Positions 26,571 through 26,692 of a stretch of 64,000 bases of DNA are shown one piece after another. Made by a program: the position numbers and the translations under genes. The stretch comes from a virus: positions 1,317 through 65,316 of IMG/VR virus record IMGVR_UViG_3300029106_000003; one strand, given 5' to 3'. How positions within the stretch are numbered: the stretch's first letter is position 1; each line of letters opens with the position of its first letter. Under the pieces are notes generated by a model that saw only the letters and a list, made by a program, of their open reading frames with translations, was not told the origin of the DNA and ran no database searches.

Positions 26571-26692
26571 GTCTTTTAATTGTTAGTAATGTTGGTTTGT
26601 TTTAGTATTGTAAAGATACTCATTATCAGCGAGTTATCCAAATATTTGCAGCGTTATTTTGCTCATAATCAAGAGTTTAACTTTTGGTAACT
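26571..26692 (-). repeat. R1: ~120-bp promoter-leader repeat (copy 1 of 3)
   Basis: Near-identical to 37717-37838 and ~85% identical to 51885-51990; contains TTTG (26639-26642), a 20-nt spacer, then TATCTTTA (26611-26618) on the minus strand. Confidence 0.8.

Follow-up and report, generated by a model that had tools for sequence, protein, structure and literature searches.

We analyzed a 64,000-nucleotide stretch of viral DNA (IMG/VR record IMGVR_UViG_3300029106_000003, positions 1,317 to 65,316; the whole stretch is hereafter called the window) in which a promoter-leader cassette of ~130 nt is found at three dispersed places, each time directly ahead of a small gene. Nearly all genes of the window are encoded on the minus strand, and the three copies of the cassette lie on this coding strand in direct orientation: copy A (26564-26692) between the terminator of the terminase unit and ORFan A1, copy B (37709-37838) with a conserved hairpin on its upstream side and ORFan B1 on its downstream side, and copy C (51863-51990) at the head of genes C1 to C3 and the portal module. 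A preliminary description, made from the sequence alone, had given these copies coordinates that fall a few bases short at the 3' end and had called A and B almost identical and C ~85% identical to them. Alignment, a repeat search, and blastn all recovered the same three copies, with global identities of 93% (125/134) between A and B, 82% between A and C, and 84% between B and C. The blastn search of the cassette against the window hit exactly three places, with no further copy at E values of ≤1e-5, and the repeat search returned the cassette as the only long repeat family of the window, far exceeding all others in length. A repeat of 110 to 130 nt at such identity cannot have arisen by chance within 64 kb. 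Every copy has stop codons in all six reading frames, and the cassette is therefore noncoding. As had been noted, the copies end at the ATG of small open reading frames (ORFs; MKATKY, MKATIE, and MKTFDF), and the similarity continues through the initial codons, which in A and B read ATGAAAGCrAC. We found no hallmarks of a miniature inverted-repeat transposable element or an insertion sequence: on inspection, with no dedicated repeat search made on them, the ends are not mutual inverted repeats, and inspection of the 40-nt flanks of the three copies revealed no target-site duplication.

Copy A is situated downstream of the gene for the terminase large subunit (26814-28325) and of the strong intrinsic terminator of that unit (26713-26736, minus strand; 10 bp followed by TTTTT, 20 nt upstream of the copy), which is kept in distant prophages with stems of differing sequence. 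On its 3' side are A1 (26375-26563, minus strand; 62 aa), a RadC-like gene, and then a scaffold-like gene and the major head gene. Copy B heads five small genes, starting with B1 (37478-37708, minus strand; 76 aa), which is replaceable in relatives. The hairpin upstream of copy B (37903-37943, minus strand; 11-bp stem) was not called by the terminator scan; its stem, as read by eye, is retained in a relative with a different but complementary sequence, and it is probably a terminator or insulator, though one without a clean T-run. Copy C overlaps the stop of ORF 51973-52182, whose TAA falls within the AAAAGTTAAAC box of the cassette, and heads C1 (51572-51862, minus strand; 96 aa), C2, and C3, together with the portal gene (49498-50898), a Tad2-like gene, and a head-morphogenesis gene. 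No PHROG family was found for A1, B1, or C1. The first cargo slot at site A is closed by a short junction, AATACATAAGAGCAATGAA (26354-26372, minus strand), and an identical 19-mer is present at site B (37462-37480). This junction has AAGAGCAATGAA in common with the 3' end of copy B and with the family consensus, while copy A ends in AAAAACGATGAA.

Read 5' to 3' on the minus strand, the cassette is made up of CAAGTTACC, AAAAGTTAAAC, TCTTGATTATGAG, an A-tract (AAAATAA), TAAATA-TTTG (-33), a 20-nt spacer, and TATCTTTA (-7), after which a 47-nt leader runs to ATG AAA GCA AC. The pair formed by TTTG and TATCTTTA across 20 nt, which had been put forward as a canonical Bacteroides-type promoter, is indeed present in all three copies (26611-26642 in A, 37755-37786 in B, and 51907-51938 in C). 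The consensus recognized by the primary sigma factor of Bacteroidota (sigma-ABfr) comprises TTTG at -33 and TAnnTTTG at -7 (PMC7366714); TATCTTTA fits the latter at seven of eight positions in each copy, the last G being replaced by A, and the 20-nt spacer accords with the expected spacing of ~19 to 21 nt. Among 190 distinct full cassettes collected from IMG/VR and human-gut metagenomes, 183 have TATCTTTAC and ~86% have the -33 TTTG. Because the core fits the Bacteroidota consensus and relatives of the window's terminase occur almost only in Bacteroidota (see below), a promoter dependent on the host sigma factor, as had been proposed, is the best reading of this core, one that the sequence match and the host range support. 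A scan for sigma-70-type promoters gave matches at background level in the window and is thus not informative for this host.

Upstream of this core, the distal box (AAAAGTTAAAC, in an AAAGTTAAAy layout; minus strand, 26675-26685 in A, 37819-37829 in B, and 51971-51981 in C) is at least 98% conserved in 133 cassettes. Its distance to the -7 element falls into three classes, 57, 66 to 67, and 77 to 78 bp, over several promoter lineages, and the spacing of roughly one helical turn between the classes suggests that a putative factor binds here in a manner that depends on the face of the helix. The palindrome AGTT-A-AACT of the preliminary description is contained within AAAGTTAAACT, which we found in all three copies; its proposed role as an operator appears doubtful, since in a sister clade the palindrome is broken by AAAGTTAAAT, yet the AAAAGTTAAA block is at least 98% conserved. 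The spacer between -33 and -7 contains an imperfect version of another dyad, ACTCAyT-N3-AATGAGT, which might conceivably be a repressor site; it reads ACTCgCT-GAT-AATGAGT in copy A (26618-26634; 37762-37778 in B and 51914-51930 in C, all on the minus strand). The leader, earlier estimated at ~45 nt, measures 47 nt from the -7 box to the ATG in copy A (26564-26610; A28 C10 G2 T7), with equivalents at 37709-37754 in B and 51863-51906 in C, all on the minus strand. Bacteroidetes mRNAs lack a Shine-Dalgarno (SD) sequence, and adenines upstream of the start improve translation (PMC7366714); the A-rich, G-poor composition of the leader fits such an SD-less translation start.

To place the window among known genomes, we searched several collections. 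Megablast with 13 kb around copy A found no match among GenBank phages, and tblastn with the terminase reached 30% identity at most in the same set. A distant blastn search with the cassette gave only three hits, all weak and partial and all in records that are unannotated or uncultured; cultured Bacteroides phages yielded none, and the exact core of the cassette had no match in the GTDB species representatives. In IMG/VR, 418 stretches contain relatives of the terminase and 220 contain relatives of the portal protein; a 30-nt exact core of the cassette was matched in >102 IMG/VR stretches and a 25-nt core in >110 human-gut metagenome stretches. Many of the metagenome matches lie on contigs of 100 to 395 kb, which suggests that these are integrated prophages. 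In the GTDB representatives, terminase relatives (57 to 83% identity) occur almost only in Bacteroidota genomes and metagenome-assembled genomes (e.g., Paraprevotella, Parabacteroides, and Prevotella), some on contigs of up to ~1.7 Mb. In distant prophages of these three genera, the terminase is followed by a hairpin, AAAGTTAAAy, an A-tract, TTTGG, a spacer of ~20 nt, TAyCTTTA, an A-rich leader, and AAGAGCAATGAAA; the spacer sequences are not conserved despite the same order of elements. This shared order indicates that the architecture from terminase to leader is old. The window is probably derived from a temperate, siphovirus-like tailed phage of Bacteroidales.

Comparison with relatives, all of which are short-read metagenome assemblies, showed that the cassette marks the exact points at which small ORFans and the portal module have been exchanged in hundreds of related phages. 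In relatives with 97 to 99% identity, homology to the window ends at 26568-26552, i.e., at the 3' end of the cassette, and restarts at 26406 or 26371; between break and restart these relatives have other genes and a 13-codon relic of A1, and homology picks up again at the AATACATAAGAGCAATGAA junction. Sites B and C display the same break pattern, and further breakpoints are found at gene starts with AAGAGCAATGA-type motifs. The 190 cassettes are preceded by ~11 to 13 upstream contexts and followed by 30 unrelated cargo groups encoding 49 to 213 aa, and 15 of these 30 groups occur behind two or more contexts. In searches of Pfam and PHROGs the cargo proteins had no matches except to DUF3560 and RadC. 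An MKAT start is seen in 6 of 24 unrelated cargo groups versus 2 of 91 window ORFs, both of the latter cassette-driven; since such starts recur among unrelated cargo, the homology extends into the first codons. The preliminary description had considered the copies potential sites of intragenomic recombination and had suggested a search for rearranged variants in metagenomes. Swapped cargo and a moved portal module are just what the relatives contain, and the proposal is strongly supported by the coincidence of the cassette with breakpoints of gene replacement and module transposition.

Polymorphisms within the cassette are consistent with free pairing of contexts and cargo. Polymorphic columns of the upstream flank are linked to the upstream context at 0.7 to 0.97 and columns of the 3' leader to the cargo gene at 0.6 to 0.78; for most columns of the cassette body, linkage to the context is ~0 and linkage to the cargo is usually 0.05 to 0.2, with a few rare-allele columns reaching 0.68. 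Copies that occupy the same site in separate genomes show 5.85 differences over 91 columns, and copies from different sites show 6.13. A comparison aimed at homogenization within genomes showed no significant difference, with six usable pairs, too few to be informative. In 24 close relatives, the terminase gene is 98.5% and the adjoining intergenic DNA 98.6% identical, and the cassette body is only 95.5% identical; between two clades the order is reversed, with ~76% identity for the terminase and 86 to 90% for the cassette from -33 to the ATG. Because its diversity departs from that of the terminase and the flank both within and between clades, the cassette behaves in evolution as a common pool that is uncoupled from the backbone.

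The exchanged cargo has once included a structural module. In the sister clade, the terminase is followed by the cassette, ~1 kb of DNA, the portal module, and the scaffold gene. In the window, the portal block (51583 to ~48604) lies behind copy C, 22 kb from the terminase, and shows 95 to 100% protein identity to its sister-clade counterpart; other relatives of the window type have no portal module behind copy C. The window region 45585-51588, comprising the portal and head-morphogenesis genes, has 94 to 97% protein identity to its counterpart in the clade compared through L134 and L183 (contig IMGVR_UViG_3300029005_000006), whose terminase is only 84% identical and is immediately followed by this module.

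Taken together, these observations make it probable, in our judgment, that the cassette is a host-type promoter-leader unit and serves at the same time as a portable recombination junction for accessory-gene slots. Each copy would be a self-contained expression cassette for a Bacteroidales host, built of five parts. Farthest upstream, at a whole number of helical turns, is the AAAAGTTAAA box, followed by an A-tract (AAAATAA) near -50 and by the core promoter for the primary sigma factor (TTTG, 20 nt, and TATCTTTA); the fourth part is the 47-nt leader, which is A/C-rich, poor in G, and free of structure, as would suit an SD-less translation start, and the fifth is the start context AAGAGCA-ATG-AAA-GCA-AC. 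These ~130 bp recur at several places within one genome and are shared by related phages and prophages in the hundreds, and they would therefore offer a homology patch by which any backbone could be joined to any cargo, and a second, short patch ending in AAGAGCAATGAA at the start of the next gene would close the slot. The outcome would be a set of expression slots whose contents, usually small ORFans and once a whole portal module, are swapped between sites and genomes, with the cassette sequence itself retained as one shared pool of alleles. The anatomy, the breakpoints, the free pairing of contexts and cargo, the decoupled diversity, and the absence of RNA structure were observed directly; a transcription start at the cassette, the strength of its promoter, any early or middle timing, and the recombination enzymes that would act on it are inferred. 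Thus, the repeats first described are confirmed, and their initial interpretation is supported in part. A wider form of this proposal, which we regard as possible rather than likely, is that the cassettes and the junctions ending in AAGAGCAATGAA form a lineage-wide gene-slot system of Bacteroidales prophages, in which a few fixed, strongly expressed slots are filled from a common pool by homology-guided exchange and share cassette alleles, the helically phased AAAAGTTAAA box being a candidate site for a host or phage factor shared by several promoter types. The slots would hold ORFans, possibly anti-defense or host-takeover genes, and occasionally core modules.

Several points weigh against the cassette being such a junction. 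The loose promoter pattern has eight matches in the whole window versus 4.8 expected, i.e., no enrichment, so that a consensus match alone is weak evidence. PHROG searches of the 52- to 64-kb region for a recombinase gave only a Holliday-junction resolvase and methyltransferases. Of 78 relatives sampled, 20 have no cassette behind the terminase, and with about a quarter of the terminase-anchored relatives lacking it at that site, it is dispensable; most of the relatives without it appear to be of the L136 type, with HicA/HicB-like genes and an antirepressor, and one has a group II intron. Random illegitimate recombination, if followed by selection, would furthermore also place breakpoints at gene boundaries. 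In a rival account, the copies are plain duplicated promoters kept by selection for expression and the adjacent replacements are illegitimate recombination events filtered for intact genes, with no part played by cassette homology. Many breakpoints do fall at gene starts generally, some without any cassette, and in some relatives the same hotspot carries other promoters or genes. In L090 (~13690-13748; see also L081 at 893), the cassette leader runs straight into the final codons of a small ORF, in what looks like a join by GAGCA microhomology rather than a clean exchange, suggesting that illegitimate joins also occur at the 3' end of the cassette. Selection on promoter function by itself is nonetheless insufficient, because it does not predict the repeated breaks at the cassette edge, with the same cargo behind different contexts and the cassette intact, the polymorphisms unlinked from both flanks in copies that have no site signature, or a cassette that is three times more diverse than its flanks in close relatives and less diverse than the backbone between clades. 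We therefore regard duplicated promoters as an improbable full explanation. Assembly error is a further concern, as some context-cargo pairs may be chimeras, given short-read assemblies, a 130-nt repeat, and contigs that end inside the cassette; at its most extreme, the shuffling as a whole would be chimeric joining of co-occurring strains. Assemblers evidently struggle at this repeat, because several contigs start or end within it (L328, L356, L358, L059, and L095). The repeat is, on the other hand, shorter than typical reads or inserts; many context-cargo pairs are represented by several distinct sequences that come from different samples; the portal module is found in either position in dozens of contigs, long ones included; and the 13-codon relic of A1 and the leader-only copies of relatives (see below) are products of real events. 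An artifact of this extent is very unlikely.

The remaining alternatives concern what the conserved sequence does rather than how it is exchanged. Conservation of the leader sequence is strong, though only A-richness would be needed for translation, and this is not fully explained by the portable-junction reading. The preliminary description had offered a leader RNA element or a target of a small RNA (sRNA), and a cis-regulatory RNA (riboswitch, attenuator, or thermosensor) or sRNA target could in principle coregulate the three units posttranscriptionally. The leader is 86% identical between clades versus 76% for the terminase gene, beyond what A-richness needs, and in relatives leader-only copies with a decayed -7 box persist in tandem behind full copies, inside operons. 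Against this, the predicted minimum free energies are 0 (A) and -0.3 (B) kcal/mol with z-scores of +0.8 and +0.5; only a small hairpin is predicted for the leader of copy C; an RNAalifold consensus of 16 diverse leaders from relatives contains zero pairs; and Rfam, except for two tRNAs, gave nothing at the gathering score over the whole window or at E values of ≤1 around copy B. A structured element is thus largely refuted, and nothing points to a single-stranded target of an sRNA or RNA-binding protein, so that we give leader regulation very little credence. A better candidate, and one compatible with the cassette as a recombination junction, is immunity control, with the spacer dyad as the operator of a phage repressor that silences or times all three units; this would also explain the conservation of the spacer. 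The dyad is at the classic operator position and in the window is found almost only within cassettes; perfect 7+7 dyads are present in the sister clade; a distant prophage has a different dyad, GATAATC-N4-GATTATC, at the same position; and several helix-turn-helix (HTH) proteins are encoded in the window, whose relatives look like prophages. Scored by hand, though, the dyad is perfect in only 17 of the 190 cassettes, its arms match at only five of seven positions in copies A and B, three positions of its left arm vary without a compensating change on the right, and the conservation of the right arm may reflect its overlap with the -7 region. No regulator is tied to it, and no integrase or CI-type repressor was found among the window ORFs scanned. 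We thus consider an immunity operator possible yet unlikely.

Two diverged promoters accompany the three copies on the minus strand. In one (35718-35793), ahead of ORF 35399-35683, the AAAAGTTAAAC box lies 67 bp from TATCTTTA and the leader ends in AAGAGCAATGAA; in the other (38294-38358), ahead of ORF 37983-38270, a AAAGTTAAAT box lies 57 bp from the TATCTTTA of an aTTG-N20-TATCTTTA core. On the plus strand, just upstream of the terminase terminator, a AAGAGCAATGA start-context motif (26741-26751) opens an eight-codon ORF, MKTAIINK, and in the clade at 84% a longer basic ORF opens at the matching place; the motif may be left over from an inverted junction or belong to a small antisense gene. 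At the usual place of the cassette, directly 3' of the terminase terminator, relative L161 carries a group II intron (7694-7985; Rfam RF02001, 150 bits; RF01998). Relative L136, which lacks the cassette after the terminase, carries instead, as read from sequence alone, an opposite-strand HicB-like/HicA-like pair and an antirepressor-like gene before the portal (7884-9531), a locus type that L137 to L147, L152, and L156 appear to share. A hairpin with a GAAA loop, GTTTAACCAGCAGGGCGAAAGCCCTGCG, follows just past the stop of several cargo genes (e.g., L196 4064, L204 2347, L217 318, and L096 2928, among others), with the variant GCAGGGGGAAATCCTTGCA in some relatives; this element is absent from the window. 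The AT-rich palindrome AAAGTaTATGAAatTCATAcACTTT, the separate palindrome class of the preliminary description, has five copies (13325-13353, 18288-18316, 25670-25698, 34165-34193, and 42087-42115), which precede tail-fiber, tape-measure-sized, scaffold-like, tRNA, and antirepressor units; two of the five delimit, on the 3' side, the units headed by cassettes A and B.

The region from the portal module to the terminase is rich in accessory genes (38429-39457 on the plus strand and 39617-40320, 42254-44232, and 48665-49165 on the minus strand). They comprise an HTH and Fic/DOC pair, a Gp49-like and HTH pair of the toxin-antitoxin type with its own predicted promoter (TTTG-N20-TATCTTTG, 40318-40349), and AbiTii beside an HTH-M78 peptidase regulator; a protein with a Tad2-like (Thoeris anti-defense) domain is also encoded here. 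Three tRNA genes were called (33426-33496, 33574-33647, and 20805-20876), of which the first has an irregular anticodon loop that ARAGORN could not assign (Rfam, 47 bits) and the last, a tRNA-Gly call, overlaps ORF 20071-20883.

In practical terms, an exact 25- to 30-mer of the cassette is a handle to the variable accessory-gene slots of very common uncultured phages and prophages of human-gut Bacteroidales. A few scans with it yielded the 30 unrelated ORFan families, offering a way to harvest candidate host-takeover or anti-defense genes.

Among known systems, the morons of temperate (lambdoid) phages consist of a promoter and a gene inserted between backbone genes, insulated by a terminator and variably present, and short boundary sequences are found at the mosaic joints of such phages; the promoter is normally individual to each moron. 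Both are treated in the literature of Hendrix/Juhala and of Clark et al. The cassette resembles morons in part, with a predicted promoter of its own, variable cargo, and terminators on the upstream side, and differs from them in that a single long promoter-leader serves several loci, across clades, and itself forms the joint. A likeness by description only is offered by P_BfP1E6, a strong Bacteroides fragilis phage promoter said to stem from Whitaker et al. (2017), as the cassette, too, would be a phage-derived, constitutive promoter of the Bacteroides type with an AT-rich phage ribosome-binding site (RBS) or leader; the core of the cassette occurs in none of the paper texts searched. With its phage RBS, P_BfP1E6 has been used in Bacteroides synthetic biology (PMC11554821, PMC7591464, and bioRxiv 10.1101/2025.03.18.644028); the cassette is a natural compact part of promoter and 5' untranslated region, with an unexplained invariant upstream box, and could similarly serve Bacteroides engineering.

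The closest known system is the promoter-early stem-loop (PeSL) cassette of T4-type phages (Arbiol et al. 2010, PMC2839356; Comeau et al. 2014, PMC4122927), which combines a repeated strong host-type promoter, an AT-rich upstream part, and a stem-loop, reaches the start codon, precedes ORFans, and mediates modular shuffling. Our cassette works alike without being a member of that family. Both are short repeated units that run from an AT-rich upstream part and a strong host-type promoter through a translation start signal to the start codon; both precede ORFans; and both coincide with insertion, deletion, and replacement breakpoints of close relatives, thus providing homology for shuffling. The stem-loop of PeSLs lies within the motif, whereas here the hairpins abut copies A and B outside the repeat, none is present at copy C, and the internal dyad, when tested as a PeSL-like stem-loop, is short, AT-rich, and usually imperfect. 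PeSLs use sigma-70 promoters and SD sequences, in contrast to the Bacteroidota -33/-7 promoter and SD-less leader of the cassette, and are loosely matching motifs with ~50 copies per genome in hyperplastic regions of T4-type myoviruses, as opposed to three near-identical copies (~130 nt, 82 to 93% identity) and two diverged promoters in a temperate-type, siphovirus-like genome. The principle of a mobile regulatory cassette, so far associated with T4-type phages, is thereby extended to temperate-type phages in a phylum where promoters and translation starts follow another logic, and, unlike with PeSLs, the cargo exchanged at the cassette includes a core structural module, so that even the portal can move by this route.

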